Below are positions 743-63,636 of a stretch of DNA of 64,000 nt, one piece after another; position 1 is the stretch's first letter, and each line of letters begins with the position of its first letter. The notes under the pieces are model-generated. The model was not told where the DNA came from. It ran no database searches and saw nothing but the letters and a program-made list of their open reading frames with translations. The DNA is taken from sequence record PP968062.1. One strand, 5' to 3'. Both the position numbers and the translations under genes were made by a program. The DNA comes from Pseudomonas phage HPP-Temi.

Positions 743-776
743 CATAAAGCCCAGCCGATTAGGGCTGGGCTTTATG
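743..776. terminator. palindromic stem-loop (CATAAAGCCCAGCC-GATTA-GGCTGGGCTTTATG), bidirectional terminator candidate
   Basis: perfect inverted repeat between convergent genes 227..739(+) and 780..1439(-); member of window-wide hairpin family. Confidence 0.6.
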
Positions 777-779
777 CTG

Positions 780-1439
780 TTATCGATCGATAGCTACATC
801 GTCGAAGTAACCGTTTTCATCGATGTGGATTTCAACGGTTGGTGGCTCGTATTCACGCATAGTCTTACGGACGGTTTCTTCTGTGGTTTTGACCAGTTCG
901 TCTTGTAACTTTTTTGCGAAGAGAACGCTTCCTGCCATGAGTGCAACACTAGCAATAGCACCTTTGTTTTGAGAGGCCAATTCCAGTGCGGGTCCGATAT
1001 TATCTTTCAGGCGACTGAAAAATCCTTTAACGCTCGATTCTTCTTTCTCCGATGGGATCGGCTGTAGTGTATCGAATACGTTCCCTGGCCAATTCTTAAC
1101 TCGGCGCCACTTCTCGCAGATAGCACCGAAATCAGTGATACCTTGCGCGAACCAATCGAAGATGAATCGATTAGTGGAAATCTTAAGGGTGATCTGATCA
1201 CCTGGTACAAATTCTTCACGAATCCATTTAACAATGTTTTCTTCGTAGAAGATTTCTTCTTTGTTGAAATCGTTCTTACTGGGAACGATTAACATTAGAT
1301 CCAATTCGACTTTGGTCTTATCGATTATTGTTTCATTTACACGCTCGATACATTCTTCGAGCCTGCATACAGTGTTAAGGAATTCGGCTTCGGTTAAACC
1401 GGTTGTTTTTACAGTCCAAAGAAAAGGGATGTTGCTCAT
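780..1439 (-). CDS. hypothetical protein
   Basis: 219-aa ORF, AGGTAAA RBS upstream of ATG at 1439. Confidence 0.6.
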   Translation of the reverse strand: MSNIPFLWTVKTTGLTEAEFLNTVCRLEECIERVNETIIDKTKVELDLMLIVPSKNDFNKEEIFYEENIVKWIREEFVPGDQITLKISTNRFIFDWFAQGITDFGAICEKWRRVKNWPGNVFDTLQPIPSEKEESSVKGFFSRLKDNIGPALELASQNKGAIASVALMAGSVLFAKKLQDELVKTTEETVRKTMREYEPPTVEIHIDENGYFDDVAIDR

Positions 1440-1565
1440 GAGTATTTACCTAGGTCTATTTAAAAGAACTGTAGGATAAAAGAATATAAAGAGCCTCCTC
1501 CTTATTCTTTAGTCCTACATATCCTTACCTCTCAGGTAAACCTTTCCCATGAACAGACATCTCCT

Positions 1566-2003
1566 TTACTTCTTCCACATCCGATAGATGTGACAACTTG
1601 TAAGGGTGAGCATTGTTCCCATAAACAATGCGGCCATTATATCGCTAGCACTCTCCTCTTCTTTCTTGTCATTCTGGTGTATGTAATCGTAATACTGTTT
1701 CTGCTCCTCTTTTACTTCAACGGAGTCATCAAGATCAATACCAACTAATAAACGCCATTCGTGATCGAGTATCCTAAATTCAGAAAGGATTGTTTCAGTG
1801 AGCTGTTCTTTAACCCACTCCCCATTACGTCCTCTATGAAGACACCAATACTCGCCTTTCTCTTTACAGATGTGACGCTCAACGCCTCGATAATAGAAAC
1901 GGAAATGTTTAATTACTTCTCTTATCGAATCGATGTACAACAGATCCGTTAAACGATCGACAGCAAAGTGGCTTCTAAGGACCTCTATGCTGCGAGTAGT
2001 CAT
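1566..2003 (-). CDS. hypothetical protein with C-terminal hydrophobic segment
   Basis: 145-aa ORF; C-terminal IMAALFMGTMLTLTS hydrophobic stretch. Confidence 0.5.
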   Translation of the reverse strand: MTTRSIEVLRSHFAVDRLTDLLYIDSIREVIKHFRFYYRGVERHICKEKGEYWCLHRGRNGEWVKEQLTETILSEFRILDHEWRLLVGIDLDDSVEVKEEQKQYYDYIHQNDKKEEESASDIMAALFMGTMLTLTSCHIYRMWKK

Positions 2004-2223
2004 TCGACGTTGATCGGTGTGGCATCTGCCTCATCGATCGTTGTAGAGCATTCTGGAGCGGTTTGGAATAGGTCTCCTCCAAAGGCAATGGTAGCACCAA
2101 TGACAACGCCGATGCTAATAGCGGTTACGATTTTCCAGTTCATGATAATTACCTCTTTTAAACAAGCCGTATCCGAGGATAAAGCTCAAATAGGTAATAT
2201 AGATCTGAAAAAAATTTTATTGA

Positions 2224-2256
2224 CATAAAGCCCTCTCCCGAAGGAGAGGGCATATG
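2224..2256. terminator. palindromic stem-loop GCCCTCTCC-CGAA-GGAGAGGGC flanked by CATAAA/CATATG
   Basis: hairpin family member directly after stop of 2269..2661(-); stem identical to copy at 51816. Confidence 0.6.
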
Positions 2257-2268: not shown

Positions 2269-2661
2269 TTACTTGAAGATACCAGCTTTGTAACCTTCAA
2301 CAACAGCTTTCGCCTCAGTTACAGAAAGTTCGTTGATGTGGGTACGCAGCGCCACCACCGCTTTGATGGTGTAGTCGGTATCAGCAACTTCACGCCAGTT
2401 ACCCTTACCTTTGGCCAGCTCTACATCCTGAACGTACAGAGCAGCCTTGAGAAGAGCCATGTTACGTTCAATCGTCTTCATGTCCATCTCCACGAGCTGT
2501 TGCAGGTGAGACAGGGACATATCGGACGCTTCACGAACATCGTCCATGAACGAACGGTTGTCGGCGTTGTTCAGGATATCGCGAGTGAGGGTAGCCAGAT
2601 TACCAGCAGTTGCGGTCAGGTTAACGAGGTGACCAGCGTATTTCTGAGCAAGAGTAGTCAT
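2269..2661 (-). CDS. hypothetical protein
   Basis: 130-aa ORF; AAGGA RBS upstream of ATG at 2661. Confidence 0.6.
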   Translation of the reverse strand: MTTLAQKYAGHLVNLTATAGNLATLTRDILNNADNRSFMDDVREASDMSLSHLQQLVEMDMKTIERNMALLKAALYVQDVELAKGKGNWREVADTDYTIKAVVALRTHINELSVTEAKAVVEGYKAGIFK

Positions 2662-3749: not shown

Positions 3750-4061
3750 TTAGACGTCAGTGAGTAACTCCTCGTAGCACTTACCCGTTTGCAGATCCAG
3801 ACTATCCTGTTCAGTGAGATCCTGACCAGAATCGTACTTCATGAATGCGTGTAGGTAGGCTGTGGAGACTGTGCGGGTATTGAAGAACTTGGCATAAACC
3901 AAGAAACGATCGATATCCTCTTTAGGATCGACCGTAGCTACAGCGAAGCAGTCGATGTCACGGCCAGGGAGAGTTTGTTCAAAGCGATAGATGGATATCA
4001 CCTTGTTTTCATCGTCATCCCGATAGCCGCATTCCAGCAGTCTGTGTGTCTGGATGTTCAT
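3750..4061 (-). CDS. hypothetical protein
   Basis: 103-aa ORF; start ATG overlaps stop of upstream gene as ATGA (translational coupling). Confidence 0.5.
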   Translation of the reverse strand: MNIQTHRLLECGYRDDDENKVISIYRFEQTLPGRDIDCFAVATVDPKEDIDRFLVYAKFFNTRTVSTAYLHAFMKYDSGQDLTEQDSLDLQTGKCYEELLTDV

Positions 4062-4432
4062 TTCGCTACTCCGTTCATTTCAACCAGGATATTGCGATAG
4101 TGCATCCCGGTGATGGTGCGGAAGTTGTTGATCATGGTATCCGTACGGCTGTTATGTACCGAGGTACCTTTGCTGATGGCACGCGATACGTCCTGGAGAG
4201 CGATGACTTCCTTGAGGGGAGGAACTCCATTGGCGATCCATTGGTCCATCACAGCTTGAACTTCTTCCTGGACCTTATCACGAATACCCATCTTCTGTTC
4301 GTGCTTTTTGTAGATACGCTTGTTCTTGGTGCGATGCAGGATTTCCCAGGACATCCAGTGGGAACGTGCTGAACGTTGGATTTCAGCGATATCGAACTTC
4401 AGTGCAGCTTCCAAACGCGACATGTGTTTCAT
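4058..4432 (-). CDS. hypothetical basic protein, possible DNA-binding/regulatory
   Basis: 124-aa ORF; AAGGA RBS 9 nt upstream of ATG; basic, helix-rich composition; function not recognisable. Confidence 0.5.
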   Translation of the reverse strand: MKHMSRLEAALKFDIAEIQRSARSHWMSWEILHRTKNKRIYKKHEQKMGIRDKVQEEVQAVMDQWIANGVPPLKEVIALQDVSRAISKGTSVHNSRTDTMINNFRTITGMHYRNILVEMNGVAK

Positions 4433-4507
4433 GAGTATTTCCTTTTTACATGAGTGTTAATATCACATTTGTAATATAGGGTTTAAAAGGGTTTAAATGT
4501 AACTCAA

Positions 4508-4538
4508 CATAAAGCCTCCCTTCGGAGAGGCATTTATA
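4508..4538. terminator. stem-loop with UUCG tetraloop flanked by CATAAAGCC/GGCATTTAT
   Basis: imperfect member of the hairpin family, immediately after the stop of 4539..4883(-). Confidence 0.45.
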
Positions 4539-4883
4539 TCAGCATGATGCTCTCAGTAGGTACGAAGACGTACCCACAATAGACTTCAACAAAGAACGCC
4601 AGTGTTGGTTGTGTAAGCCCTCTAGGAGCTCCACCACAACCCCATCCCGCCAATTGGCGGTAAGGACACACATTTCACCAAAAGACACCGTAAACAGCGT
4701 TTTAGACCGTTTCTCGGGGACATGTATTCGAAGTTCTCCCAAGAATAGTTTAGCTTGATTCCTGAAGATGTATTCGAACCGACTAGTAATAGCGGAAAGA
4801 TCATGTCGGTAATGTGGTAATAGGAGATAGTAGAAGTTCTCAAGGATTACTTCTAATGTCTCCACTCTTTCTTGTTCTGTCAT
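4539..4883 (-). CDS. hypothetical protein, translationally coupled to the upstream SbcC-like gene
   Basis: 114-aa ORF; ATGA overlap with stop of 4880..7372. Confidence 0.5.
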   Translation of the reverse strand: MTEQERVETLEVILENFYYLLLPHYRHDLSAITSRFEYIFRNQAKLFLGELRIHVPEKRSKTLFTVSFGEMCVLTANWRDGVVVELLEGLHNQHWRSLLKSIVGTSSYLLRASC

Positions 4884-7440: not shown

Positions 7441-8250
7441 ATGGAAGCTTCAATTTTTAAACTGGTAAGTATTGGTCGTGTAGCAGCAAATAAAGAACGT
7501 GCATCTCGGCATGTAGATGTACTCCCGGTTGAACTGGCGACCGGTACCGATGGTGAGGTAACATTCGATCCTCAGCAAGAAACACTACAAGGCTTTGATG
7601 CTGAAGGTAATCAGTACAACGTCAAAGCAACAACCACACGTACCACTAACTGTGAGTGGTTACCGAATGAAGATAACCGTGTAACACCACCCGATGTACG
7701 TCGTAACGAGATCGTTGAGATCTGGCGTATGGGTGACACTGATCAATATTACTGGCGGAGCATGGGTCTACGGAATAACCTACGTACACTAGAATCCGTT
7801 GTATTTGCCTGGAACGCTTCTCCTAAACCTGGTGGCGCCGGTATTGACTTCTCGTCTTGCTATTTCATGGCTATCTCTGCTCATGACAAGCATTGGACTA
7901 TTGGTACCTCTAAAGCCAACGGTGAAGCTTTTGCTTATACGTTCCAGATCAATACTGATTACGGTGCCGTGTATATCAAAGATGACGTAGGACAGTTGAT
8001 TGAACTCGATTCTAAAGAACGCCGCCTACAATTGAAGAATGCTGATAATAGCTTCTTGAAAGTAGAGCGTCAATGGATCGAGATGTCTGCTGACGATCAC
8101 ATCAAAATGACTGTTGGTGGGACCACGATGGAACTTAAGCCTGCATCCATTGATACGAAGACATCAAACACCACGTTGAATAGTTCTGGTACTCACACAA
8201 CTATAGCTGGTCACATCATCGAACAAACTGGTAGATGGGATATTCTCTAA
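7441..8250 (+). CDS. baseplate central spike protein (gp5 / gpV-like) candidate
   Basis: ATG 7441 with AGAGGA RBS (ORF track start 7411 has none); ~270 aa, beta-rich with Thr/Ser-rich C-terminus; immediately followed by a PAAR gene overlapping as TAATG. Confidence 0.5.
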
Positions 8251-8516
8251 TGAGTGGAGTAGCCGTTTGTAATATAGATTCTGCTGGGGGTACGATCCGT
8301 GCCTCTGGTAACTCAACTGGCTTCTATCGTGGACAACCTATTGCTGTACTAGGTGATCCTGTAGATAACCATGGTCGTTCTCCTCACAGTAGTGCACGTA
8401 TGACTCAAGCATCTATTAAAGCTTTTATCAAAGGCGTACCGATTGTTCTCCAGGGAATGTCTGCTAGTTGTGGACACACTGCTACTGGGCGACCGGATGC
8501 GACATGTAATCAATGA
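8250..8516 (+). CDS. PAAR-repeat spike-tip protein (T4 gp5.4-like)
   Basis: 88-aa protein with PAAR-type motifs ([19 protein letters not shown]); start overlaps upstream stop (TAATG). Confidence 0.7.
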
Positions 8517-8518
8517 CA

Positions 8519-8552
8519 ACATAAAGCCCTCCCGACTGGGAGGGCTTATGCC
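8519..8552. terminator. palindromic stem-loop ATAAAGCCCTCCC-GACT-GGGAGGGCTTATG
   Basis: between convergent genes 8250..8516(+) and 8554..9738(-). Confidence 0.6.
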
Positions 8553-8553: not shown

Positions 8554-9738
8554 TTAAACGCCTTCAGCTTCGTAATGCTTGATGCAGTGACTAATGAAAG
8601 TCAGATACACGTTAAGCGATACAGCCAACCAGTGAGTATAGAAACCCATGGGTTCAGCGAGCTTCTTCGAAATCTCACCGATGATAGATAGAACAGCGTT
8701 GTAGGATTTACCTGCTGTTTCACCTTGTTCGGCGATCTGACGAATAGCGTCGTCCACAACTACCTTGACCGTGGCAAAGTCCCGCTGACCCGCTTCAGCC
8801 TTCTCTGCAAGAGAAAGGATGCTGGAGATCAACTGGGTGATTTCACTCAATGTGCGGACAGAAGGTACATCGATCTCACGGTCAGAACGGTCAGCTACGT
8901 TAAGCTGGAGTTCTGCGAACTGCATTGTGAACGAACGTCTTACAACATCCTCGTTCGCTACTTTACTATTACCCAGCATCTGAGTGATTACATCAGGCGG
9001 AGTATAGATGAACGCAACGTTGCCCGGTAGGACAACAGAACGATGAACACCTTTCTCGGCAGTAGTCAATTCACGCGCTTGTAGCGGTGCATGACCCGGC
9101 GGAGGAGTAAAGTCACGTTGAAGGATATTTGCAAACGTTTCAACCACTTCACCTGCTACTTCGTTAACACTGGAATCCTTAGATGCTTCCAAGATGTTCA
9201 AGAACGAACGAGAGCTATTCCGAGCAATCTTTGTAACGGATCGGGGGTAATGGTTAAGAATGTAGTTGGTCAGGTCTTTGATGTCGTTCAGGTGGTTGAG
9301 ATCCAACCCCACGAAGTTGCCATCGATAGATAGACGCTGTACACCAGCTACAGACATTTTCTGATAAGTAGTAGCCGAACCCAGTTTACCTAGACGCCGA
9401 CTAATACTTTCTTGGGTACGACGGACACGACGGATGCTACCGGTGAATTTGACGTAGAAAGAGTTAAGCAATTCCCAGATATAGCGGACAATATCACGGG
9501 TAGCTTTCGCAGCCGCGATGATACCTTCTTTAATTGCTCTCAGAGTAATCTTAGAACCTTCTTTGATATCAAAGTCAGGATCGATACTCTCAAGGGCTAC
9601 CGAGATTACCTCAGCAGTAGCCCCTGTTACTTCGTCACGTCCAACCAGCAGATCGCGGTAGCGCTCTAGGGAAGTACTCAGACGTTGGATCTTGTCCAAG
9701 TCAGCCGTTACTTCGTTCCATTGTGCTAGATAGGACAT
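8554..9738 (-). CDS. hypothetical virion-associated protein, paralog of 9750..11510
   Basis: 394 aa; shares blocks (GVQRLSIDGNFVG vs GLQRLSIGKEFVG, and others) with the next gene. Confidence 0.6.
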   Translation of the reverse strand: MSYLAQWNEVTADLDKIQRLSTSLERYRDLLVGRDEVTGATAEVISVALESIDPDFDIKEGSKITLRAIKEGIIAAAKATRDIVRYIWELLNSFYVKFTGSIRRVRRTQESISRRLGKLGSATTYQKMSVAGVQRLSIDGNFVGLDLNHLNDIKDLTNYILNHYPRSVTKIARNSSRSFLNILEASKDSSVNEVAGEVVETFANILQRDFTPPPGHAPLQARELTTAEKGVHRSVVLPGNVAFIYTPPDVITQMLGNSKVANEDVVRRSFTMQFAELQLNVADRSDREIDVPSVRTLSEITQLISSILSLAEKAEAGQRDFATVKVVVDDAIRQIAEQGETAGKSYNAVLSIIGEISKKLAEPMGFYTHWLAVSLNVYLTFISHCIKHYEAEGV

Positions 9739-14756: not shown

Positions 14757-14789
14757 AATAAAAAGAGAGGGTTTCCCCTCTCTTTTATG
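14757..14789. terminator. palindromic stem-loop AAAAGAGAGGG-TTTC-CCCTCTCTTTTATG
   Basis: between co-directional genes; ends with TTTATGTCGTTA like other family members. Confidence 0.55.
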
Positions 14790-14792: not shown

Positions 14793-16100
14793 TTAGGACA
14801 GTTCTTCTACGCTGGACTTAGCCACGACCATGTAGTTGACGTTCTTGAAGTAAGCGCTTGCATAGATCACGTTATCACGGATCATACGAGATACACCTTG
14901 AGGAACGGAACTATAACGAGTCATCCCTTCAGCTGCTTTTAACAGCTTCGAGAACAGCATCATCCATTCAATCGTTTCAGGCGAAGATTTGTTGATATCA
15001 CCAGTGTCATTAGTTACCAGTTGATAGTCTTTAAACTTCTGCGAGAATTGAGTGATGCCATTACGGTTCTGCGGGTTACCCAGCACAGAGAATGCAATGG
15101 ACTTGTAGGTGTTCGAAGAGAGTTCGAACTTGTTGTCTACGTAGGTCTGAGTATAACCAGGACCACGTGCAGTGCGACGGATCAGGGGCAGACGCTTGCG
15201 ATGGTCAACAGTAGGACTGTAAGTACCAGCACGATAGTCAGCTTGTTCGATGGAATACTGGTTCCAGAACGGAGTAAAGATGAACTCGGTCGTCATGAAC
15301 AGGTCAGGAAGAATAACTTCCCAGTCAGTCCGAGGATGAGTAGAGTCTTTCAGGAGTTCTTCAACGATCTTGTCCTTAATAAGGTCAGGGTTGTTACCTG
15401 CCTCACCATAGACGATCGCAATCCAGTAAGCCGGGAAACGCATGCTGTCATCACGAGGGTTGTGATATTCGAACATGAATGCCCGTTGATGGGTGTACGG
15501 ATACTGGGCACGCTTGGCTTGTACTTCCTCAATCTTTTCGACGAGGTCGTAATCAGCTAGCAACTGCTTAACGATAAGAGGGTCTTTGAAGAAGTCATCA
15601 AACGGAACGATCGGGTGAACGATCTCGATTACGTATTCATCGTACTGTGCTGCAAACGATTCGTCTGCAAGCCAAATGTTCATCTGGTTAGCTTCAGTGC
15701 CTACCAGTACGAACTCAACCCACTCGGGCATCCAGATACTACCGTTAGAGATCATTTGACCGCTACGGAAAGTCTTGATGACACCGTTGAATTCTGCCAT
15801 TACCAGCTGACGCAGTACGTTCGGATCAGAACCGATTGTACCAGCGATAGACTGCTGATAAATATATTCCCCAAGCTTCAGAACTTGATCTTTATTGTTA
15901 CCGGCAACATCAACGACGTTTCCATCCTTTACGCTATGAAAAGAAACAAAAACAACGTTTGGTGCGGACGTACCGGTGTGGAAAGTCTTGTCCTTTGCAT
16001 AGGTTGCGCTGTTCGACGAAAGTTCGCCGAGCTTCGCTACAGTTTCTGGGGCATTCGAAATGAGTGCAGGGAAACTATAAAAGCCTTTCAAATTGTACAT
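14793..16100 (-). CDS. hypothetical virion structural protein
   Basis: 435-aa ORF, last gene of the minus-strand structural block before the divergent region. Confidence 0.6.
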   Translation of the reverse strand: MYNLKGFYSFPALISNAPETVAKLGELSSNSATYAKDKTFHTGTSAPNVVFVSFHSVKDGNVVDVAGNNKDQVLKLGEYIYQQSIAGTIGSDPNVLRQLVMAEFNGVIKTFRSGQMISNGSIWMPEWVEFVLVGTEANQMNIWLADESFAAQYDEYVIEIVHPIVPFDDFFKDPLIVKQLLADYDLVEKIEEVQAKRAQYPYTHQRAFMFEYHNPRDDSMRFPAYWIAIVYGEAGNNPDLIKDKIVEELLKDSTHPRTDWEVILPDLFMTTEFIFTPFWNQYSIEQADYRAGTYSPTVDHRKRLPLIRRTARGPGYTQTYVDNKFELSSNTYKSIAFSVLGNPQNRNGITQFSQKFKDYQLVTNDTGDINKSSPETIEWMMLFSKLLKAAEGMTRYSSVPQGVSRMIRDNVIYASAYFKNVNYMVVAKSSVEELS

Positions 16101-51359: not shown

Positions 51360-51794
51360 GTGATTATGCACGTATCAAACATGCGGGTTAAACTACTCCA
51401 GCAGTTTAGTCTACAGAACAAACTAGAACCCGCGATTCGACCTGAAGATGTTATCTGGACAAACATTGAAATCTGGTTAGAGAATGGTAATAACTCAAGA
51501 GCTACCATTCAAGCTCTGGCAAGTAGTAATCATTTCAAAGGACAGCGTACTATCAATTTCAATCGATACAGAATCGAAGAAGCATTGCGTGGCGTTGTTA
51601 TTCCCGGAAAACGTTCTGACTACTCGACTATCCACGATGTAGTTAAAGTACTGCGGGATAAGGTTACTGCACCAGTAGATACCGAAGAATTCCTTGATGG
51701 TCCTCTTGTTGGTAACACGGTTATTCTGAAGCCGACTATTCGCTCCATGGCGTACATTCCTACGTCGCAGATCGAACTAAGCTTCGCTGAATAA
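51360..51794 (+). CDS. hypothetical protein
   Basis: 144-aa ORF followed by an A-tract and a family hairpin. Confidence 0.55.
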   Translation: MIMHVSNMRVKLLQQFSLQNKLEPAIRPEDVIWTNIEIWLENGNNSRATIQALASSNHFKGQRTINFNRYRIEEALRGVVIPGKRSDYSTIHDVVKVLRDKVTAPVDTEEFLDGPLVGNTVILKPTIRSMAYIPTSQIELSFAE

Positions 51795-51815: not shown

Positions 51816-51842
51816 GCCCTCTCCCGAAGGAGAGGGCTTATG
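51816..51842. terminator. stem-loop GCCCTCTCC-CGAA-GGAGAGGGC + TTATGCCGTTA, preceded by A12 tract
   Basis: 22-nt stem-loop identical to the copy at 2231..2252; between convergent genes. Confidence 0.6.
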
Positions 51843-51871: not shown

Positions 51872-52573
51872 TTACACGAGCGCCACGAAAGTACCGTCTT
51901 TGAAACCGACCTTACACTTAGCTTCATCGTACCACACGTCCACACCCATACGAGCGAGACCTTCGATAACGTACTTGTCGTAGTTACCTTTACCGCGCAT
52001 CACCGACTTCAGTTGGCGGGTCAACATGGTGTGGTTTGTAGACATGAACATACCCGGAACATCCAAGTCTTTCACACGCAGGTTACGCGGCAGCAGAGAC
52101 TCCATGGTGATGTTCAGGAGTTCCATGCGACGCAGGTCTTCGCGGAGAGCGCGGACGTTGTACACCATGGCCAGGCGAATGTCACCGCCGTTGCGGAGAT
52201 GTTCTTCGGTCAGGTGAGGTAGAGTTGCAGTGGGATCGACCAGAAGAGCACGTTCACCGGTGGTGTGTACTACAGGATCGAGGTAGGGATTGTGAACAAC
52301 GTATTCGCCATTGACCCAGCGATACAGATCCAGCGTGGAGGTAACCTTATAAATCATTTCCGGATCACCGCGCAGGGGCAGGTCGTCTACGGACAGTACG
52401 TCGATGGTCATGCTCTCTCCTTTAGCTTTCTGAAGTACAACCGGTTCATCGGCGACGTCGATGATAGTATCGAAGAAATCCGGAGATTGTTCTTCGTCAC
52501 GCAGAGCATTGCCAAATAGCTGGCGATGGGACGGAACGAAGATGGATTTAACAGCGTCGATTACTTGGTTCAT
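51872..52573 (-). CDS. hypothetical protein
   Basis: 233-aa ORF. Confidence 0.6.
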   Translation of the reverse strand: MNQVIDAVKSIFVPSHRQLFGNALRDEEQSPDFFDTIIDVADEPVVLQKAKGESMTIDVLSVDDLPLRGDPEMIYKVTSTLDLYRWVNGEYVVHNPYLDPVVHTTGERALLVDPTATLPHLTEEHLRNGGDIRLAMVYNVRALREDLRRMELLNITMESLLPRNLRVKDLDVPGMFMSTNHTMLTRQLKSVMRGKGNYDKYVIEGLARMGVDVWYDEAKCKVGFKDGTFVALV

Positions 52574-53183: not shown

Positions 53184-53208
53184 CATAAAGCCCCTCTAAT
53201 GAGGGGCT
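53184..53208. terminator. stem-loop CATAAAGCCCCTC-TAAT-GAGGGGCT
   Basis: hairpin family member between co-directional genes. Confidence 0.5.
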
Positions 53209-53637: not shown

Positions 53638-53668
53638 AAAGAAGCCCCTCCGAAGAGGGGCCTTTATG
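53638..53668. terminator. stem-loop AAAGAAGCCCCTC-CGAA-GAGGGGCCTTTATG
   Basis: hairpin family member between co-directional genes. Confidence 0.55.
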
Positions 53669-53669: not shown

Positions 53670-55736
53670 TTACTTCAGACGTTTCAGCAGAACAGCTTTC
53701 TCAGTCAGACGACCACGGATCACTTCCAGATAAACACCATCCAGAGTAATCAGACGCATGCGGACGTTTGCCAGACCATTTGCAGTTGCACGAGTGATCA
53801 TGCCTTTCAGTACTTCACGAACAGTCGGGTGGGTACCTTCAGATACCAGAACTGCTTTCTCGTTCAGGATGTTCAGAGTAGCCAGTTGTTCCAGAGTCCA
53901 ACCTACCTGGAAGTTGGTGAACTGGTCGGCTACGCCACGGGTGTTGTCTACTTCGGCCATAGTTACGGCACGGGAGATGATCTGCGCAGCACAAGCCTTC
54001 ACGATTTGCAGAATGTTGGAACCTTTCTTGGTGTTGATGTAATCCAGCAGCTCACCGATGTCATGAGCGAAGTCGTCGATGGTGATGTTCATCGACAGGC
54101 TATCGGCCAGGAAGTCATTGATGGACTTGGTCAGACGATCATTCAAGAAGCGGAAGTAACGAATACTCAGATGACCATTGGTTACCAGTTCTTTCAGTTC
54201 AGTTGCTACGCCGATCAGATCGGTATAGTTAACTAGCTGGCTCAGCTGGTCGAAGGTCTCATCGCTAACGTCCATGTGGTGAACGTTCATCGATTTGTAT
54301 TCATGAGCAGGAATCTCCACGCTCATGGATTCTTCGTCATCTTCGATACCCAGTAGTTCACGCATTGCTGCGCGTACTTCGGATTCGACTTCCAGATCAG
54401 TTGCACCCATGAACACTTGGTTGTCCAGAACTACCGGACGACTTGCTACGGCAGCAAGGCCACCATCTTGCACCAGGCTGGCCACTTCCTCACTAGCCAG
54501 TGCATTGCCACCAATAGTGGAGACGGGAGTTTGTGCAGCGTATACAACGCCGTTAGGACGATATTCACGACGACGCAGGTCATCGTTCAGTTCATGCTTC
54601 AGGTATTCCATTTGCGGGTTCCATTCAACGAATTTCTCTTTTACCACGCCATCCGGGAAACGGACGTAGAAGCGGCAGTAGTGTTCCGGATCAACCAGAG
54701 CACTGTACGGATCTTCGTCACCGACGGTACGTTCCCAATCAACCTGATGTGCCGGTTTGATCAGAACGCCACCGGGATTATGGATCTCATCATACGGACG
54801 GGCGATGTCTACACGGAAACCGGTGGGTTGGTAATACATCGGATCGATCATTACCTGACTGACATCGATCGGTGCCGGCAAATCGGTATCTTCAATTACA
54901 GCAGGTTGCCGCGCTTGAGTCTGGGGTTGTTGAGTGTACATCGGTTGTTGCTCCTGGTTATTGGAGTAGCCACCGTAGATATCAGTACTGACCTCTTCTT
55001 TCGGCATCAAAGGAGCCTGAGAAGGAGTATCATCGTAATACGAACTGGTGGTGCTCGACGTGGTGTTGTTTGTAGTGGTCTGATAGGTGCCAGCCGGCTG
55101 TGCGAACTGTGCCTGAGACGTGGTAGCGAACTGACCCATGTTACCCGGATTGATCGGAGGCAGGTTGCCTGCCATCTGGATACCATTGCCCTGTTGGTAC
55201 ATACCCATCTGCTGTTGTTGCTGCGGACGGTAGTTACCAGACTTGTACGCTTGGATGTCTTGCAGGATCTGCTGGTACATGCCTTGGGCAGTTTGCAGAC
55301 CTTGGAACATGTGCTGAGGAACAGCACCCATTTGTACTAGAGCCGGATAAGATGCTACGCACTGACCCAGGAAGGCTTCGTACATACGCTGAGCGCCCCT
55401 AGGCACTGCATCAGTTTGACTATAGTTCTTGCAGACGCACAGGAACTCGACGAAGTCAACGAGATGTTGACACCACTGCTGGAAGATCTGGTTTTGGAAC
55501 CAGTTCGAGGACAGCAGGTTGTAGGCAAAGATGTGGAGGTTACCTTTGCCAACCGACGATTGTGCAAGCCCACGGAACAGACCAACTGCCTGGAGTACCA
55601 GCTGTTGGTTATTCATCAGGTTCTGGCTAAGTTGGAGTTGAGGTACCCGATCATTACCAGCCGGCAGATTACCATTGAAGGTGCTCTGATCGACTTGTTG
55701 GCAGGAGACCGGGAGTTGAGCTTGTTGGTTGTACAT
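53670..55736 (-). CDS. hypothetical protein with N-terminal Q/N-rich low-complexity (prion-like) region
   Basis: 688 aa; residues ~130-260 are Gln/Asn/Tyr/Gly/Thr-rich (QQQQMGMYQQGNGIQMAGN...TTNNTTSSTTSSYYDD). Confidence 0.65.
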   Translation of the reverse strand: MYNQQAQLPVSCQQVDQSTFNGNLPAGNDRVPQLQLSQNLMNNQQLVLQAVGLFRGLAQSSVGKGNLHIFAYNLLSSNWFQNQIFQQWCQHLVDFVEFLCVCKNYSQTDAVPRGAQRMYEAFLGQCVASYPALVQMGAVPQHMFQGLQTAQGMYQQILQDIQAYKSGNYRPQQQQQMGMYQQGNGIQMAGNLPPINPGNMGQFATTSQAQFAQPAGTYQTTTNNTTSSTTSSYYDDTPSQAPLMPKEEVSTDIYGGYSNNQEQQPMYTQQPQTQARQPAVIEDTDLPAPIDVSQVMIDPMYYQPTGFRVDIARPYDEIHNPGGVLIKPAHQVDWERTVGDEDPYSALVDPEHYCRFYVRFPDGVVKEKFVEWNPQMEYLKHELNDDLRRREYRPNGVVYAAQTPVSTIGGNALASEEVASLVQDGGLAAVASRPVVLDNQVFMGATDLEVESEVRAAMRELLGIEDDEESMSVEIPAHEYKSMNVHHMDVSDETFDQLSQLVNYTDLIGVATELKELVTNGHLSIRYFRFLNDRLTKSINDFLADSLSMNITIDDFAHDIGELLDYINTKKGSNILQIVKACAAQIISRAVTMAEVDNTRGVADQFTNFQVGWTLEQLATLNILNEKAVLVSEGTHPTVREVLKGMITRATANGLANVRMRLITLDGVYLEVIRGRLTEKAVLLKRLK

Positions 55737-55759: not shown

Positions 55760-57388
55760 TTAAGAGACGAAGCGTTGTTGCGCTTTGTCAATAAGTTCAC
55801 GATCTTCTTCACGTCGTTCAACCAATCCGTCGTATCTCACGTTGACGAAGAGGTTGAGTCGGCCACGACCATCCGGGTTGTTCTTCGGTTGGTTTTTATA
55901 CTGACCCACTTCCGCAATCGAAGCGTGGATGAGACGAGAGCTATCGCCGATAAGCGACTTGTTGTGCGCCTTGGATGTCTTAGCGCGATCCTGCGGTACA
56001 AGAATTGAAGTTACCTTAATAACCTTGCTATCACCAGGAGACGACAGCGTATCGAGCTCGCCGTGTTCACTGGTGAGTTTCTTGATGCAGGTGTTGAGCT
56101 TAAACGAACGTTTCAGGGCATCGTTGATTTCCTGTCCAGTCCATTCTTTATCTTTACGGCCTTGGAAGGTATACGCAAACATAGAGACAGCATAGTTAAA
56201 CTCTGCCATCACATACCGGAGAATACTCAGGCGTTTGTCGTACATGCTGGTTTCATCGATGTCGGTGGCGTAAAGGTGGTGCGCCATGTCCGTCATGATT
56301 GCATACAGCAGTTCCCAGATAGTGTTAACCTTCACTCCAACAGAACGAAGTTCTTCGATGGTCATCTCATCGAGCGAGTTGTTGAAACTATCCAGGTGGG
56401 ATTCGATGTTCTCTGCAATCTTACCCTGGTGCTCGAAGTCACCAAAGATCATCAGACCCAGGATGATCCGCCACAGCTGTTTGTTATCCATGTAGCTCGG
56501 CTCATAGAACCGGCTTGGGAAAGCATCCACAACGTACCAGAAACCTGCGACCAATCGACGAATGAAATCCGTCTCTTTCTCTTTAGGTAGAACCAGTACC
56601 ATGTCCCCAGTTGGATGGCGACGTTTCAGAACAGCGGATTCGTAAACGTTCCACTGATCACGAGGATACTCAGACTCAGGGAAGTCTTTCAGATAACCAA
56701 TTTGTACATCTACTCCACCCCAGCGCTTGAACGTTTCAACAACGCCAAACTCACAGAAGAAGTAATGAGCCAGACACGACTCAATGTGCTGTCGGTTATC
56801 AAGATCACGTTTGGTACGCTTGGACATCTCGTTGTGAATCTGAGACCAGATCACGTACATCACTTCACGCTGACCATTGCACATGTAGTGGTGGTCAACT
56901 TGTTTGAACGTGAGTTTAGCTCGACGGAACGGAATGAAGATACTACCATTCAGAACCGAGAAGCCTACGTCAGTCAATACCGGGGAGATCGAATAGGTAG
57001 CACCGTTCAGAGTGCAGATACCGCCATCACGAACATAAGGTAGAAGTACCCGACGTGGGAACATCATTTCGCCTTTATAGCTCGTGATCAATTCGATCAT
57101 GTACGTGTTGCTCTCTGCGATATTGGCTACTCGCTTCGAACCGTACTCACGGGTGATCTCTTCGAAATGTACCTCAGGTTTACACAGACGGTTTCCATGA
57201 TACTTGAAGTCAGCAGGGAACAGCGCCGAGTTGATCTCGAACAACTTATCTACATAGGCACGAGTTGCGTTCATGCCTGTATCAGGGTTGATCTCCATCA
57301 TGTGCTTTACTGCAAGACCGTTGGCTAGGTCTTTGTTGAGCTTAGGTGTGACACCATCAATCCTGCCGATTACATACGGGTCCATCAC
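55760..57388 (-). CDS. hypothetical protein (542 aa)
   Basis: long ORF adjacent to capsid block; no motif recognised (checked for RNAP beta/beta' signatures, none found). Confidence 0.65.
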   Translation of the reverse strand: MMDPYVIGRIDGVTPKLNKDLANGLAVKHMMEINPDTGMNATRAYVDKLFEINSALFPADFKYHGNRLCKPEVHFEEITREYGSKRVANIAESNTYMIELITSYKGEMMFPRRVLLPYVRDGGICTLNGATYSISPVLTDVGFSVLNGSIFIPFRRAKLTFKQVDHHYMCNGQREVMYVIWSQIHNEMSKRTKRDLDNRQHIESCLAHYFFCEFGVVETFKRWGGVDVQIGYLKDFPESEYPRDQWNVYESAVLKRRHPTGDMVLVLPKEKETDFIRRLVAGFWYVVDAFPSRFYEPSYMDNKQLWRIILGLMIFGDFEHQGKIAENIESHLDSFNNSLDEMTIEELRSVGVKVNTIWELLYAIMTDMAHHLYATDIDETSMYDKRLSILRYVMAEFNYAVSMFAYTFQGRKDKEWTGQEINDALKRSFKLNTCIKKLTSEHGELDTLSSPGDSKVIKVTSILVPQDRAKTSKAHNKSLIGDSSRLIHASIAEVGQYKNQPKNNPDGRGRLNLFVNVRYDGLVERREEDRELIDKAQQRFVS

Positions 57389-58873: not shown

Positions 58874-58944
58874 TGTCTGATCCTCTAATTGGGGAATATT
58901 TCATCATCACTGTAATATAGATTTGAAATATTTTTTAATGACGA

Positions 58945-58978
58945 CATAAAGCCTCTACCCGAAGGTAGAGGCTTTATG
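58945..58978. terminator. palindromic stem-loop CATAAAGCCTCTACC-CGAA-GGTAGAGGCTTTATGCC
   Basis: perfect family member ~110 nt downstream of the major capsid gene stop. Confidence 0.6.
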
Positions 58979-59088: not shown

Positions 59089-61314
59089 TCAACCCTTAAC
59101 GGCGTCGACCAGGGGCTTGTTCCACTGAGACTCACCCATCACTTCTTCGAAGCCAGTAACGTCGAATTCGAGAGCGAACGGGATGTTGTTTACGTGCAGG
59201 TTGAACGGAATCGCAGCGATTTCGCGAGTAACTTGCTGGCCACCACGGGTGATCGGCAGGTCGGCGATTACGGTCGATACGTAGTAGAATTGACCGAAGC
59301 TGAGGATGTCGTTCTCTTGCGGGTTCTTACGAGTCGGAACCACTACCAGTTTACCGTCGAACAGTTCGTTGTTGGTCGATACCAGGTCGTATTCCAGGTA
59401 AGCGCCCAGGGTACGATCGTCGCCCTTGGTCATCAGGTAGTTAGCGATCTCTTTGTCCGAGCAGAACAGGAACATCGGACGCTCGTCTTGGTTGCCGGAG
59501 ATCACACGGAAGGCTGCTTCGATGTTGGATTCACGGTAGGCCGGGAACAGTACACCTTTAACAGCGTTCAGGATTGCCGAGCAGACATCTTCCCAACGGT
59601 CTTGCGACTTCAGGGTGTCGATCATGTCAGGCAGGTGCAGCTTCTTGTAGCGGTAGGTCGGACGCATTACTGCGGACAGAGCACCTTCAACAGCACCGAA
59701 CTGCGGACGGTCGAAACCGTTAGCGGTTACTTCTTTCAGCTGAGCCAGGTAGTTCAGCAGGCGCTTAACAGCGTTGTTGCTGTTACGGATGTTGGTGTTG
59801 ACAGTCAGAGCCTTAACAACTTCGCCCGGACCTTCTTCGTCCATGGTGCTCAGCGGCAGGGTTACCGGAGCGTGCATCGGAATCGGGTGACGGAATTGCA
59901 GGGCACGAGTTTGCAGCAGGTGACCACGCTGACGACGGTTGGTGTTGGTGAAGCGGGTATCGAGGTCGAAACCAACGATTTCCATTTCGCCAATGCTGTC
60001 GACCAGTGCTTTACCATCGCCAGTTTCCAGATCGATACGACGCTTGTCTTCGTCCAGGATACGGTCGATAGTTACTTCACCAATGGTGAAGCGGCTGTCG
60101 CCACGGCTCAGGCTAACGTGACCGCTGAATTGCATGCTCAGACGCAGAACCCACTTACGTTGTTCCAGTTCTTTCATGCCAGCAGTTTGAGCTGCATCAG
60201 TAGTACGAGTAACGGCCGATACGGTCAGGTCGTCAGACCAGAAGTCGATCTTGGCGCCACGGGTATCACCAACCAGGTCCGGCTGGAACACTGCGCGCGG
60301 CAGACGTTCGGTTTGGAACTTGATGACTTTACCTTGGAACTTCACGTACAGAGCCTTCAGGCGGCCCGACGGATCGATGGTGTCCGAAATGTCCAGCATG
60401 CCTTTGTTGATCAGCAGGTTGGCGTTCGAGTTACCCATCAGGTCCAGTTTAACGCCCGGCTTCAGCGGAGCAGTTTCGATGGACATGTTTTGTTCGTTGA
60501 TAACGGTTACCGGAGGCAGCAGAGCCGGATCAGCGAAGTACTTCAGGTTGGTACCAGCAGGATCGATGGCCGGGATCAGTGCAGTGCACTCGTCGTCCAG
60601 GATGGACGGATCACGATAGGCTTCAACCATGTTGACTTCTTGGTTGTCGAGCTTCTGACCGGAAACAGCGTGGTAAACGTCTTTCATTACCGCGATGTAC
60701 GGCAGTACCTGAACCACACCGCCCTCGATCGGGTTGATTACGGTGGTCGGATAGATACGCTCAGCGAACTCGTCCTGACGGGAAGCAGCCAGGTTATAAC
60801 CAACGGTCACAACGCGGAAGTCACGCTGGGATTTCTCGTTGTAGTTTTCCAGACCAACGCCAGCAGCAGCTTCGAAAGTTTGGATCGAACCAGCCGGGCC
60901 ATCAAAGCGGTGTTCTACCGAAATGACGTTCTTGTCAGTGGAAGCAATTTTCTTACCAACTTGTTTCAGAGCCTTAACGTACTCAGTGGAGTTGGACATT
61001 GCCAGAGCAGCCATGGTAGCGGCCGACAGTTGGTTCTCGCCTACACGGCTTGCAGCGCCTTCGAAGGATTCGAAGCCACAGGTACGGGCGATCTTTTGCA
61101 GGCTAGCGTACATGCCAGCAGCGCTTTGAGCATCTTCGTCGCTCAGTTGACCGAAGGATTCCAGGCCGATTTTACTGATCAGTTTGCTACCGGCAGACAG
61201 AACGCTGTCACCGTAGTCTTTTTCCAGATCCAGTTTACCCAGGAAGTTTTCCATGGAGAAACGAGTCAGGTTTTGTTCGCCGTTCACTTTGAACAGAGCT
61301 TTAAGGTCTTTCAT
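59089..61314 (-). CDS. major capsid protein, phiKZ gp120-type (741 aa)
   Basis: size and overall character match the ~740-750-aa major capsid proteins of phiKZ-like jumbo phages; strong expression context (terminator downstream, RBS AGGA). Confidence 0.75.
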   Translation of the reverse strand: MKDLKALFKVNGEQNLTRFSMENFLGKLDLEKDYGDSVLSAGSKLISKIGLESFGQLSDEDAQSAAGMYASLQKIARTCGFESFEGAASRVGENQLSAATMAALAMSNSTEYVKALKQVGKKIASTDKNVISVEHRFDGPAGSIQTFEAAAGVGLENYNEKSQRDFRVVTVGYNLAASRQDEFAERIYPTTVINPIEGGVVQVLPYIAVMKDVYHAVSGQKLDNQEVNMVEAYRDPSILDDECTALIPAIDPAGTNLKYFADPALLPPVTVINEQNMSIETAPLKPGVKLDLMGNSNANLLINKGMLDISDTIDPSGRLKALYVKFQGKVIKFQTERLPRAVFQPDLVGDTRGAKIDFWSDDLTVSAVTRTTDAAQTAGMKELEQRKWVLRLSMQFSGHVSLSRGDSRFTIGEVTIDRILDEDKRRIDLETGDGKALVDSIGEMEIVGFDLDTRFTNTNRRQRGHLLQTRALQFRHPIPMHAPVTLPLSTMDEEGPGEVVKALTVNTNIRNSNNAVKRLLNYLAQLKEVTANGFDRPQFGAVEGALSAVMRPTYRYKKLHLPDMIDTLKSQDRWEDVCSAILNAVKGVLFPAYRESNIEAAFRVISGNQDERPMFLFCSDKEIANYLMTKGDDRTLGAYLEYDLVSTNNELFDGKLVVVPTRKNPQENDILSFGQFYYVSTVIADLPITRGGQQVTREIAAIPFNLHVNNIPFALEFDVTGFEEVMGESQWNKPLVDAVKG

Positions 61315-61387
61315 GTTTGATTCCTACGCAGGATGGGTTTTGGTTATTACAAAATATCTTGTCAAACAAAGCTGGTATTTTCCGGAT

Positions 61388-61924
61388 TCAGCTTTGCGAC
61401 TCCAGATAATAAGTGAAGAGATTTGTTGCCATTACTTGCTCAAATGGGCAAGCTCTAGTCAGCTCGCTAATCATACTATCAAAGAAAGTATGGTTAGCCT
61501 TGATTGTGAGCCGGTCAGGATCGCTTGAACCAGTGTGCAGACTCTTCTGCACCGCAACCCAAAGATACTCATCTACAGGATAAAGGCTATAAACACTGAT
61601 ATAATCAGAGTCGTTAGCTTTACGTAGTGCCAAGTTAGCAATACGTTCCCCTAAACGATTATGCAATTCTTGCATCTTGAATTGATTTTCGTCTTCGGTG
61701 GTTGCCACTTGGGCGATCCCGACTATCGGACTGTCGGCTTTCTCGATCTGAGTGCCTTGACAGAACCGGAAGGGGAATTCATTGATAGCAGCGTCGATCT
61801 CCGCAAGGTCATTTACCGAGCTTACGGAAGCTATATAGTTGGGGCAGAGTAGCTTAGTAAACTGCACGCCATCAGCTTTGTACTGATCATAGACTGCTTC
61901 GGGGATAACAAGTAACTTGATCAT
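61388..61924 (-). CDS. hypothetical protein
   Basis: 178-aa ORF upstream of capsid gene. Confidence 0.55.
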   Translation of the reverse strand: MIKLLVIPEAVYDQYKADGVQFTKLLCPNYIASVSSVNDLAEIDAAINEFPFRFCQGTQIEKADSPIVGIAQVATTEDENQFKMQELHNRLGERIANLALRKANDSDYISVYSLYPVDEYLWVAVQKSLHTGSSDPDRLTIKANHTFFDSMISELTRACPFEQVMATNLFTYYLESQS

Positions 61925-62061
61925 CGGGATATTGACCTATTGTGGGACCAAGGCTATTAAGTGTCTACATAGGAATATATACTTAATTCGGAGACAAATT
62001 ACTTACGATAAAAATGATACACGGTACATCATTTTAAATTTACTAAAAGGATGCGGTTCAA

Positions 62062-63600
62062 ATGTCCTCCCCAAAACAGCTTCTTGTCAGTTGCGTTACC
62101 CTACTTTGCCTGGAACATCGCCCTGATTCTCCAGCTTCTCCTTCTACCGAACTGATAGACAAAATCGTTGGTTCTCTTGAAATTAAAGAAACTACCGTAG
62201 ACCACGATCATGGTCGTCAGACTTTCCTTGAACTGCGTAAGTTGGTTCAAGATCTTAATAAGAAGGTTAAGCACGAATTCCCGAGCATTGCTGAAGTTCT
62301 GCAATCTGTGCAAGTAAGTTGCCGTGAAGAGAACTATCTGTACGAAGCCGTGCTGAATGGTGTTAATGAGAACTTCCCAGATGGGATGGCCATTATGCAT
62401 CGGATTAACTCCTATCGCCGTTCGCTTAATGAATACATCAACGATGAAACTATTAAAGCGATCATGAAGGAGTATTCTGCTAAGCTTCTGTTTAACCGTG
62501 GTGGCGGTAATGATATCGCTGGTATGATCAACGAGATGGGCGCTAAGCTTGATCCTTATGTAAAGGCTCGTGCTGAAAGTCGACATCCCGCTGAAATGGG
62601 TTGCCTTGATTTTGACAACCCTGAAGGTGTAGAAGAATTCTTCGAAGCTGTACAAACTACTTTGTCTGCTGATGGTGCATTCAAATTAGGTTGGAAAGGT
62701 TTCAACCGAGTATTGGGTAGTTTGGGTGCTTTCCGTCGTGGTGAGTTCATTACCACTGCGGCACTGCAACACAACTTTAAGTCTTACCTGGTTATGCTGT
62801 TGTTCGTTCACGTGGCTCTGTTCAACAAGCCGTATATGCGTGACAAGTCTAAGAAGCCTCTGCTTCTGTTTGCAACTCTTGAAAACGAAATCGCTGACAA
62901 CCTTCTGACCATCTACAAATACATCCGTGAAAACGAAACGGGTGAGGAAGTCATTGTTAAGGACATCGACAAGCGTGAAGCAGCTGCTTATGTTTGTGCT
63001 CGTCTGGAAGAGAATGGCTTCAAAGTTAAGATGGTTCGTTTCGACCCAACCGAGTTTACCATTGGTGGTTTCACTAACTACCTTGATGGTCTGCAAAGCC
63101 AAGGTTACGAACTTCAGTTCCTGGTAGTTGATTACCTGAACATGCTGCCTAAAACTGGTCTGGATGCGAAAGTAGCTGGTGACGACATTCGTCTGTTGTT
63201 CCGTCGGATGCGTAACTATACTACTCCTCGTGGTATTACTTTCATTAGTCCTCATCAGCTAGGTTCTGACGCTCTGCAACTTATGCGTGAGAACACTGAA
63301 GACTTTGTTAAGGTAGTAGCGAACAAAGGTTACTACGATGGATGTCGTCGTCTGGGTCAAGAACCTGACCTAGAACTGTTCCACCACATCATCCGCCATA
63401 AGGGCAAAGCGTATCTCGCTATTCAGCGAGGTAAACACCGTAACACTGTAACTGGTGAAGAGGATCAGTATGTCCTGTTGCCATTCAGTAACATCGGTAC
63501 GATCCCATGGGACATTGATAAAGAAGAAGACTACTCGATGAAAGTTGTACCGGGTTCGGTAATCGGTGGTGATCTTGATTCTGACGCTTGGTCCATCTAA
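62062..63600 (+). CDS. DnaB-like (RecA-fold) helicase-domain protein lacking a canonical Walker A
   Basis: C-terminal LQFLVVDYLNML...DDIRLLFRRMRNYTTPRGITFISPHQLG parallels DnaB LIVIDYLQLM...EISRSLKALAKEL.VPVVALSQLNR; no GxxxxGK[ST] found. Confidence 0.4.
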   Translation: MSSPKQLLVSCVTLLCLEHRPDSPASPSTELIDKIVGSLEIKETTVDHDHGRQTFLELRKLVQDLNKKVKHEFPSIAEVLQSVQVSCREENYLYEAVLNGVNENFPDGMAIMHRINSYRRSLNEYINDETIKAIMKEYSAKLLFNRGGGNDIAGMINEMGAKLDPYVKARAESRHPAEMGCLDFDNPEGVEEFFEAVQTTLSADGAFKLGWKGFNRVLGSLGAFRRGEFITTAALQHNFKSYLVMLLFVHVALFNKPYMRDKSKKPLLLFATLENEIADNLLTIYKYIRENETGEEVIVKDIDKREAAAYVCARLEENGFKVKMVRFDPTEFTIGGFTNYLDGLQSQGYELQFLVVDYLNMLPKTGLDAKVAGDDIRLLFRRMRNYTTPRGITFISPHQLGSDALQLMRENTEDFVKVVANKGYYDGCRRLGQEPDLELFHHIIRHKGKAYLAIQRGKHRNTVTGEEDQYVLLPFSNIGTIPWDIDKEEDYSMKVVPGSVIGGDLDSDAWSI

Positions 63601-63604
63601 TGAC

Positions 63605-63636
63605 ATAAATGCCTTCCCTCCGGGGAAGGCTTTATT
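63605..63636. terminator. palindromic stem-loop CATAAATGCCTTCCC-TCCG-GGGAAGGCTTTATTC
   Basis: hairpin family member right after stop of 62062..63600. Confidence 0.55.

Follow-up and report, generated by a model that had tools for sequence, protein, structure and literature searches.

Intergenic palindromic hairpins of Pseudomonas phage HPP-Temi are probable members of the phiKZ terminator family

A probable terminator family shared with phiKZ and 201phi2-1

A stretch of 64,000 nt from the genome of Pseudomonas phage HPP-Temi (PP968062.1), referred to here as the window, carries a family of GC-rich, palindromic stem-loops between its genes. An earlier examination of the letters alone (the sequence-only reading) proposed that these elements may both terminate and re-initiate transcription. 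The analysis presented here indicates that they are very probably the intrinsic, hairpin-type terminators of the phage, of the same conserved family as those of phages phiKZ and 201phi2-1. The family conforms to the phiKZ type in its hairpin composition, in its YTTATKYYGT flank, in its placement behind stop codons and in its occupation of positions orthologous to those in phiKZ. The terminator half of the earlier interpretation agrees with published experiments on the orthologous elements of both relatives.

In phiKZ, ONT-cappable-seq revealed the motif 5'-BCCYCCCCHWWDGGGRRGGBYTTATKYYGT-3' at 61 terminator regions (Putzeys et al. 2024, Microlife; PMC10914365). It is common to most of the predicted intrinsic terminators of that phage, including bidirectional cases between convergent genes (PMC10914365). 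In 201phi2-1, motif A (n = 59) is similar to that of phiKZ, and a motif B makes the hairpin longer; 15 bidirectional terminators were reported, and eight terminators, chosen across the sequence motifs, blocked a downstream reporter in vivo when placed in a terminator trap (PMC11512511).

Searching the window with the published phiKZ motif at up to three mismatches gave 3 sites, with 0 expected and, in the opposite direction, a model built from the window copies alone matched some 20 intergenic loci over 100 kb of phiKZ sequence. A hairpin scan of phiKZ showed that 13 of the window copies share gene gaps with phiKZ hairpins, these being the gaps gp168/169, gp163/163.1, gp157/158, gp153/154, gp146/147, gp144.1/145, gp142/143, gp138/139, gp129/130, gp125/126, gp124/125, the gap after gp120, and gp117.4/helicase. 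At least ten of the shared hairpins have mapped 3' ends in phiKZ (T054, T057, T059/60, T063, T064, T065, T067/68, T070/71, T074 and T076), and the ends on these orthologues lie 2–8 nt after the stem, mostly 5–8 nt, at or just past the G of the flank (published Table S4). A sense-strand 3' end was mapped even at T063, the orthologue of the copy at 35735, despite the absence of a U-tract, and the copies at 14757, 35735 and 53638 therefore probably form 3' ends too, whether by termination or trimming.

The window elements and the phiKZ terminators are alike in hairpin composition, in the YTTATKYYGT flank and in their intergenic and convergent placement, and the densities are 61 per 280 kb in phiKZ and 17 per 64 kb in the window; on the other hand, the window comes from another, Pawinskivirus-like phage, and individual stems differ. 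The published phiKZ logo stresses the 3' flank only, whereas in the window the 5' flank, TAA-CRR-CATAAA, is a conserved mirror image of it that includes the stop codon. The CATAAA/TTTATG and ACRR/YYGT extensions of the window elements lengthen the hairpin as motif B does in 201phi2-1, a phage of a different genus and host that is likened here by its published description.

Bidirectional intrinsic terminators of bacteria consist of an A-tract, a GC hairpin and a U-tract between convergent genes. The window elements are likewise palindromic, with an upstream A-rich tract that complements the downstream U-rich one, and a single element serves both strands. They differ in having UUUAU, then a conserved G and YYGU, where the bacterial terminators have a run of 6–8 U, and during infection they would be met by the phage's own non-canonical multisubunit RNA polymerases.

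Detection of the hairpins and their placement relative to genes

The window derives from a phiKZ-like, nucleus-forming jumbo phage, and its gene order parallels phiKZ gp117.4 to gp170. Megablast showed 82–86% identity over the full length of the window to PA1C, PS119XW (genus Pawinskivirus), BRkr, phiHQ and HHBS36_1, and a patchy identity of about 76% to PhiPA3. Recognizable genes include those for the major capsid protein (59089..61314, minus strand), a subunit of the non-virion RNA polymerase (nvRNAP; 55760..57385), tail sheath, UvsX, RNase H and SbcC. All statements on gene context are based on a 66-gene model obtained by tblastn of PA1C and PS119XW proteins, according to which 4.8% of the window is intergenic. 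For comparisons of orthologues, PS119XW was used in place of PA1C in the right-hand third of the window.

A blind scan for hairpins with a perfect stem of at least 7 bp, at least 5 G-C pairs and a loop of 3–8 nt returned 18 in the window, compared to 3.2 ± 1.8 (maximum 7) in windows simulated by a first-order Markov model. Fifteen of them are intergenic, one (24521-24547) lies across a stop codon and two are within genes, giving an approximately 98-fold excess of hairpin density in intergenic over coding sequence; the two gene-internal hairpins (41980 and 50651) lack a TTAT/TATG flank. The flank motif TTATKYYGT occurs 14 times in the window (4.8 expected), and 11 of these occurrences adjoin a hairpin, while GGCTTTATG is found 25 times at up to one mismatch (10.8 expected). 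All 16 stem-loops originally listed were recovered as GC-rich stem-loops, either exactly or 1–6 nt away, and 12 of the 16 loops are tetraloops, in keeping with their description as usual. A seventeenth member, at 33032-33064, had been overlooked.

A MAFFT alignment of 25 oriented copies left five of them misregistered, and the seed of a covariance model was rebuilt from 20 copies, with the others held out. When the window was searched on both strands with filters off, this model returned only intergenic copies, the sole extra match being noise (E = 0.84). Held-out copies 51816, 35735 and 14757 were recovered, and copy 21854 was missed. Occurrence of the same element at similar density inside coding sequence, which the sequence-only reading had named as evidence that would count against it, was not seen: neither the covariance model nor the hairpin scan found a copy within the coding sequence of the window. 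All 17 copies lie at orthologous positions in PA1C or PS119XW, where stems are kept and loops drift, with compensatory changes at 8519, 14757 and in a hairpin outside the family at 12243. An Rfam scan of the whole window at gathering thresholds gave no match, a generic terminator scan of its first 20 kb flagged some copies but not all, and a literature search for TATATTAC was uninformative.

The element had been described as present in nearly every intergenic gap, which overstates its frequency: it is found in 17 of the 37 gaps of at least 20 bp in the gene model. Its distribution follows gap type: every one of the six convergent gaps is occupied, as are 11 of the 24 co-directional ones, while the seven divergent gaps lack it, and the earlier statement that copies sit between convergent and also between co-directional genes was accurate. 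This pattern is the one that terminators predict, not promoters.

Anatomy of the element

The consensus of the window copies is GACATAAAGCCCnCCC....GGnnGGGCTTTATGTCGTTA, with a stem consensus of GCCCnCCC....GGnnGGGC. Stem folding energies range from −8.6 to −17.9 kcal/mol, and folding was confirmed on both strands, as anticipated from the suggestion that a transcript of either strand would form the same hairpin; sense and antisense hairpins in co-directional gaps showed no consistent asymmetry in stability. The right flank had been taken to be conserved beyond the palindrome, but it is in fact the outermost portion of an extended palindrome, TAA-CRR-CATAAA-stem-loop-stem-TTTATG-YYG-TTA, in which the terminal TTA is the reverse complement of the TAA stop codon of the neighbouring gene. 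In most copies the stop codon of the upstream gene is 8–11 nt (mode 9) from the GC core, and in convergent gaps the palindrome encloses both stop codons. Perfect palindromes, earlier ascribed to each copy, are limited to those at 743 and 58945 (34 nt).

Flanks that are needed for sense termination match the 3' motif with a mean score of 7.33 out of 9, compared to a background of about 4.4. Flanks not needed for sense termination also match above background (6.75 versus 4.36) because the palindrome includes the stop codon in a fixed register. Within the flank, TAT is invariant and the following G is at least 90% conserved. This extended palindrome, with the stop codon kept in a fixed register, adds slightly to the published phiKZ logo.

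According to the mechanism proposed, the C-rich arm, a loop that is usually a tetraloop, and the G-rich arm would form a stable RNA stem, followed by UUUAUG(YYGU). Given the long-palindrome build, one copy in a convergent gap would thereby terminate both transcripts. In a co-directional gap the element would end one transcription unit, and a separate promoter situated 10–45 nt downstream would start the next.

Several points weigh against the identification as intrinsic terminators. The typical tail, TTTATG, has 3–4 T and then an A, so that the transcript carries UUUAU and not the canonical bacterial tract of about 6–8 U, and the sequence-only reading was right to call it short for a classical intrinsic terminator. 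In the copies at 14757, 35735 and 53638 the consensus flank is found on the antisense strand only, with the stop codon of the sense gene inside it, and copy 35735 has no U-tract on the sense strand. ARNold did not class the phiKZ orthologues T054, T063 and T065 as intrinsic, and 3' ends mapped by ONT-cappable-seq cannot separate termination from exonucleolytic trimming back to a hairpin. Covariation of the stems between copies is strong and speaks for the family, with 87.8% of cells paired against 70.6% after shuffling and with two-sided changes in 46 cells where shuffles gave 12.9, but the count takes in both strands of palindromic copies and a model-fitted alignment, and overstates the independent evidence; the RNAalifold consensus of the 20-copy alignment is weak (−7.2 kcal/mol), because stem lengths differ, and is less informative than the pair counts, which are biased towards the model. 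Lastly, that the window's own copies terminate transcription is something we infer from the relatives phiKZ and 201phi2-1 only, and the RNA polymerase on which they act is likewise presumed.

Individual copies

Convergent gaps hold several bidirectional hairpins. The first, at 743..776, lies between convergent genes 227..739(+) and 780..1439(-) and is a perfect palindrome of 34 nt, with both stop codons 9 nt from the GC core and a phiKZ orthologue in the gp168/gp169 gap. At 8520..8550 (copy 8519), between convergent genes 8235..8516(+) and 8554..9738(-), there are compensatory stem changes in PA1C, and the phiKZ orthologue has a transcription termination site (TTS), T076, at 167868. Bidirectional terminators are also predicted at 18927..18958, between genes 18513..18923(+) and 18991..19959(-), where the PA1C loop differs, the stem is kept and the phiKZ orthologue is T070/T071; at 24517..24550, across the stop codon of gene 23774..24535(+) and opposite gene 24560..27871(-) (phiKZ T067/T068); and at 45533..45563, between genes 44241..45527(+) and 45567..48272(-) (phiKZ T059/T060). 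The terminator at 51816..51842 lies between genes 51360..51794(+) and 51872..52573(-) and has the same stem as copy 2224; the 22-nt identity between them had been noticed, and runs from 51816-51837 as given, but its partner is 2230-2251, one position off the start assigned earlier.

Most of the remaining copies would act on minus-strand transcripts. The hairpin at 2224..2256, downstream of gene 2269..2661(-), has the sense flank TTTATGTCAA and is identical in PA1C, and that at 4508..4537, downstream of gene 4539..4883(-), has a G-U wobble in its stem on the sense strand, equivalent to a C-A mismatch on the other strand. The copy at 14757..14789, between co-directional minus-strand genes, has the sense tail TTTTTATTT and carries the consensus TTTTATGTCGTTA on the other strand, where the stop codon of gene 14793..16100 falls within it; an A-U pair has undergone a compensatory change to G-C in PA1C, and the phiKZ orthologue is T074 at 162450. 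Further along are the hairpins at 30433..30464, upstream of the tail-sheath gene (27871..30339, minus strand) and orthologous to phiKZ T065 at 147179, and at 33032..33064, the seventeenth member (hairpin 33041), which is followed by TTTTATAATG and is orthologous to T064 at 145649. At 53184..53208, also between co-directional minus-strand genes, the sense flank TTTATGTCC precedes the next start codon by 19 nt. The perfect palindrome at 58945..58978 follows the major capsid gene, and its phiKZ orthologue, T057 at 120629, was classed as intrinsic (−18.4 kcal/mol).

Two other minus-strand hairpins, at 35739..35761 (copy 35735) and 53644..53668 (copy 53638), have their consensus flank on the plus strand. 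The former lies downstream of gene 35765..36253(-), the stop codon of which is held within the flank (TTATGCCGTTA), and its sense tail, AAGCTAAAAA, lacks a U-tract; the phiKZ orthologue is T063 at 142947. The latter lies downstream of gene 53670..55736(-) and has the sense tail TTCTTTAG. Plus-strand terminators are predicted at 21854..21882, between co-directional genes 21446..21850 and 21899..22246, with the flank TCTATG, and at 63604..63635, downstream of the helicase gene (62062..63600, plus strand), with phiKZ orthologue T054 at 115943.

The TATG motif and late promoters

Late promoters of phiKZ have a core of TATG, with G as the +1 position, which is required for activity but does not suffice for it; the upstream sequence matters little, and any single substitution in TATG abolishes or strongly reduces transcription. 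This TATG is bound in a pocket that lies wholly within phiKZ gp123. The sequence-only reading had noted that each copy embeds TATG, and it is indeed present on at least one strand in all 16 of the listed copies. Of the idea built upon it, that the element may terminate and re-initiate transcription, the terminator role is supported, and re-initiation probably holds for the gaps by way of adjacent, separate promoters; the part that is not supported is the use of the element's own TATG as a promoter.

A dual element of that kind, in which the nvRNAP would use the post-stem TATG with its G as +1, is unlikely. The arrangement of two co-directional gaps would suit it, since the G lies 19 nt (copy 53184) and 17 nt (copy 21854) before the next start codon, and promoter-coupled terminators have been reported in bacteria. 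The comparison with phiKZ transcription start sites (TSSs) covers entries P001-P003 and P008-P126 of Table S3, among which none coincides with the TATG of a terminator itself. ONT-cappable-seq does not capture every start, and these entries list no TSS at the early-promoter box after phiKZ gp120, but the terminator-adjacent TSSs that they do contain (P001, P016, P017, P023, P028, P041, P049, P054, P075, P078 and P099) lie 10–45 nt further downstream, each at a separate motif. Measured downstream from the terminator flank, the distance is about 40 nt for early promoters P001, P017, P028 and P099 and 5–45 nt for late promoters P049 (CCCTTATGCTATGT), P054, P075 and P078.

The distribution of the motif within the window also argues against a promoter function. 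Convergent-gap flanks retain TATG in 11 of 12 cases, compared to 6 of 11 for the sense flanks of co-directional gaps, and in convergent gaps its firing would yield only antisense RNA, so that a restart there would be pointless. The element is missing from the divergent gaps, and the homologue of late promoter P119L, at 61968..61971 on the minus strand (CCTATGTAGACA, G = +1 at 61968; phiKZ P063 at 117616), is a contrast case outside the family, without a hairpin. The corresponding position of the phiKZ terminator motif is K (G or T), yet any single substitution in the promoter TATG at the least strongly reduces transcription. The conserved G is adequately accounted for by its place in the C-G pair closing the CAUAAA/UUUAUG stem extension.

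Another use of the motif can be imagined, although we consider it doubtful: as the polymerase elongates, the gp123 pocket may recognise the TATG tail and induce a sequence-specific pause once the hairpin has formed. As gp123 is a beta-like core subunit of the nvRNAP, the pocket would travel with the elongating enzyme, and at late promoters it binds non-template T-3 A-2 T-1 G+1. Pausing of this sort would be analogous to sigma70-dependent pausing at -10-like sequences, and the UUUAU tract could then do the work of a long U-tract. The location of most phiKZ 3' ends, as given above, fits this idea, as do the confinement of the pocket to gp123 and the preference for G over T, A or C at that position. 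If true, one 4-nt word would mark both starts and stops for the nvRNAP, and the difference between TTTATG and TTTATT, TTTACG or TTTTTTTT tails would matter to the nvRNAP and not to the host RNA polymerase.

Putative promoters downstream of the terminators

An A/T-rich box ending CTATATTAC is found 24–33 nt downstream of three copies (2224, 4508 and 58945). These boxes have the architecture of phiKZ early promoters among the Supplementary Table S3 entries compared, and there is a like arrangement after phiKZ gp120, at the capsid-gene terminator. All three are on the minus strand. The box at 2165..2201 ends with CTATATTAC 24 nt past hairpin 2224 and is upstream of a small gene (2000..2143, minus strand), that at 4445..4478 (…TTTTAAACCCTATATTAC) is between hairpin 4508 and an open reading frame (ORF) at 4058..4432(-), and that at 58884..58919 (…AAATCTATATTAC) follows the capsid-gene terminator and precedes the operon of the nvRNAP subunit (55760..57385), which is as expected for an early promoter. 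The ORF at 4058-4432(-), of 124 aa, directly behind terminator 4508 and its box, has no counterpart in PA1C, whose corresponding gap measures only about 106 bp, and it looks like an inserted accessory early gene. The cassettes at 2165-2256 and 58884-58978(-) are alike over about 70 nt which, together with the 22-nt identity of the 2224 and 51816 stems, suggests that whole cassettes are occasionally duplicated or undergo gene conversion.

Two late promoters are predicted from sequence and homology, as are start-site positions in the window generally. A TATG at 30407..30410 on the minus strand (CTCTATGAG, G = +1 at 30407) would serve the tail-sheath gene; it is 26 nt beyond the own TATG of terminator 30433 and is homologous to phiKZ TSS P078 at 147221. 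The second, GCTATG at 33027..33030 (minus strand, G = +1 at 33027), comes immediately after terminator 33041, and its flank, TTTATAATGCTATGTGG, is conserved with phiKZ, in which TSS P075 (145659) is 10 nt after TTS T064. In phiKZ itself (NC_004629), 3' ends and late TSSs can be 10–20 nt apart, as in T064/P075 (145649/145659) and T046/P054 (101370/101390), and P049, which reads CCCTTATGCTATGT near 94330, also shows tight terminator-promoter spacing. Very tight coupling of terminator and promoter exists in this phage group, and the phiKZ text examined does not discuss it.

In bacteria, terminator DNA itself has been found to contribute to a sigma70 promoter (Fletcher et al. 2026, bioRxiv 10.64898/2026.08.19.745784). 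The phage arrangement is similar in that stop and start are adjacent and very close (10 nt for phiKZ T064/P075, with the window orthologue at 33027-33064), but differs in that the window promoters appear to be separate motifs just downstream. The PeSL cassettes of T4-type phages, each an early promoter plus a stem-loop, were reportedly described by Arbiol et al. in 2010, with modular shuffling proposed and with positions that are said to vary between genomes. They resemble the CTATATTAC cassettes at 2224, 4508 and 58945 as repeated intergenic stem-loops with an early promoter; unlike them, the window copies are positionally conserved between genera.

Alternative explanations

It is highly improbable that the hairpins act as stabilisers or processing stops of RNA 3' ends, with read-through followed by 3'-to-5' exonuclease trimming back to the stem. 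Such a role would account for the sense 3' ends mapped in phiKZ at copies that lack a sense U-tract (T063, the orthologue of window copy 35735, and T054), it is indistinguishable from termination by 3'-end mapping, and the fixed 9-nt spacing from stop codon to stem would also suit a hairpin that protects mRNA. A simple exonuclease block, however, would not need the flank, and TTTATGYYGT is conserved (mean 7.3 versus 4.4). Early-promoter-like boxes directly behind three copies argue that transcription units really end there, and the eight 201phi2-1 terminators that were assayed blocked their downstream reporter in vivo (PMC11512511). Given those reporter assays and the conserved 3' flank, a role in processing only is unlikely for the family as a whole, though it may apply to the copies that have no U-tract.

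That the palindromes function at the DNA level, either as a mobile repeat similar to repetitive extragenic palindromes (REP) or miniature inverted-repeat transposable elements (MITE), or as protein-binding sites or cruciforms, can be virtually dismissed: they are palindromic over up to 34–46 bp, two stems are identical over 22 nt and two cassettes are alike over about 70 nt, but stem sequences vary freely between copies with pairing kept, and therefore contain no fixed recognition sequence, copy 4508 has a G-U wobble on the sense strand where the other strand has a C-A mismatch, placement follows transcription (convergent gaps yes, divergent no), and the co-location of 17 of 17 copies in PA1C or PS119XW, with 13 in the same phiKZ gaps despite low nucleotide identity, means that nothing suggests mobility. 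A mobile repeat or PeSL-like cassette was rejected since neither presence nor position varies between related genomes, and a DNA-binding site was rejected on the free covariation of stems, the positional conservation and the direction-dependent placement.

Other hairpins and small genes in the window

Three co-directional gaps contain hairpins that do not belong to the family. At 12243-12266, AGTGGCTTGG...CCAAGCCACT is followed by CTTTAC and shows a compensatory change in PA1C; CAAAGCTGG...CAGCTTTG occurs after the upstream neighbour of the capsid gene (61315-61387); and an AT-rich stem, TATATCAC/GTGATATA, is followed by GGCTTTATTTA (52574-52625). They may represent a second class of terminators.

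Two ORFs, 16595-17014(+) of 139 aa and 18513-18923(+) of 136 aa, lie in stretches that are unannotated in PA1C, and the position of the latter corresponds to that of phiKZ gp154. Pfam gave no match for either of these or for ORF 4058-4432, the three small ORFs beside elements. A gap of 221 bp at 33480-33700 has no called gene, and the PA1C annotation is empty there too; with padding, the gap has a strong predicted fold (−73 kcal/mol) and may contain a small gene that has escaped annotation, or a non-coding RNA. A small RNA conserved among jumbo phages has been mentioned for 201phi2-1 (PMC11512511). ARAGORN flagged an 81-nt tRNA-Gly(GCC) at 15864-15944(-), inside the gp157-like ORF 14793..16100, but the Rfam tRNA model gave no match there at gathering threshold, and the call is probably a false positive. 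The same ORF is annotated as two coding sequences in PA1C, split near the tRNA call, and is a single ORF in phiKZ and in the window.

Significance for phiKZ-like phages

The predicted terminators provide transcription-unit boundaries across 64 kb of an uncharacterised phiKZ-like phage, and their value is mainly one of annotation. Early- and late-class putative promoters 10–45 nt behind terminators form compact stop-start cassettes, which goes slightly beyond the published logo, and these cassettes might serve again as insulated parts for synthetic biology in Pseudomonas. A puzzle is that the terminators carry the polymerase's own promoter word, TATG. For the group as a whole, the results indicate conservation between genera not only of the phiKZ terminator family but also of where its individual members sit.

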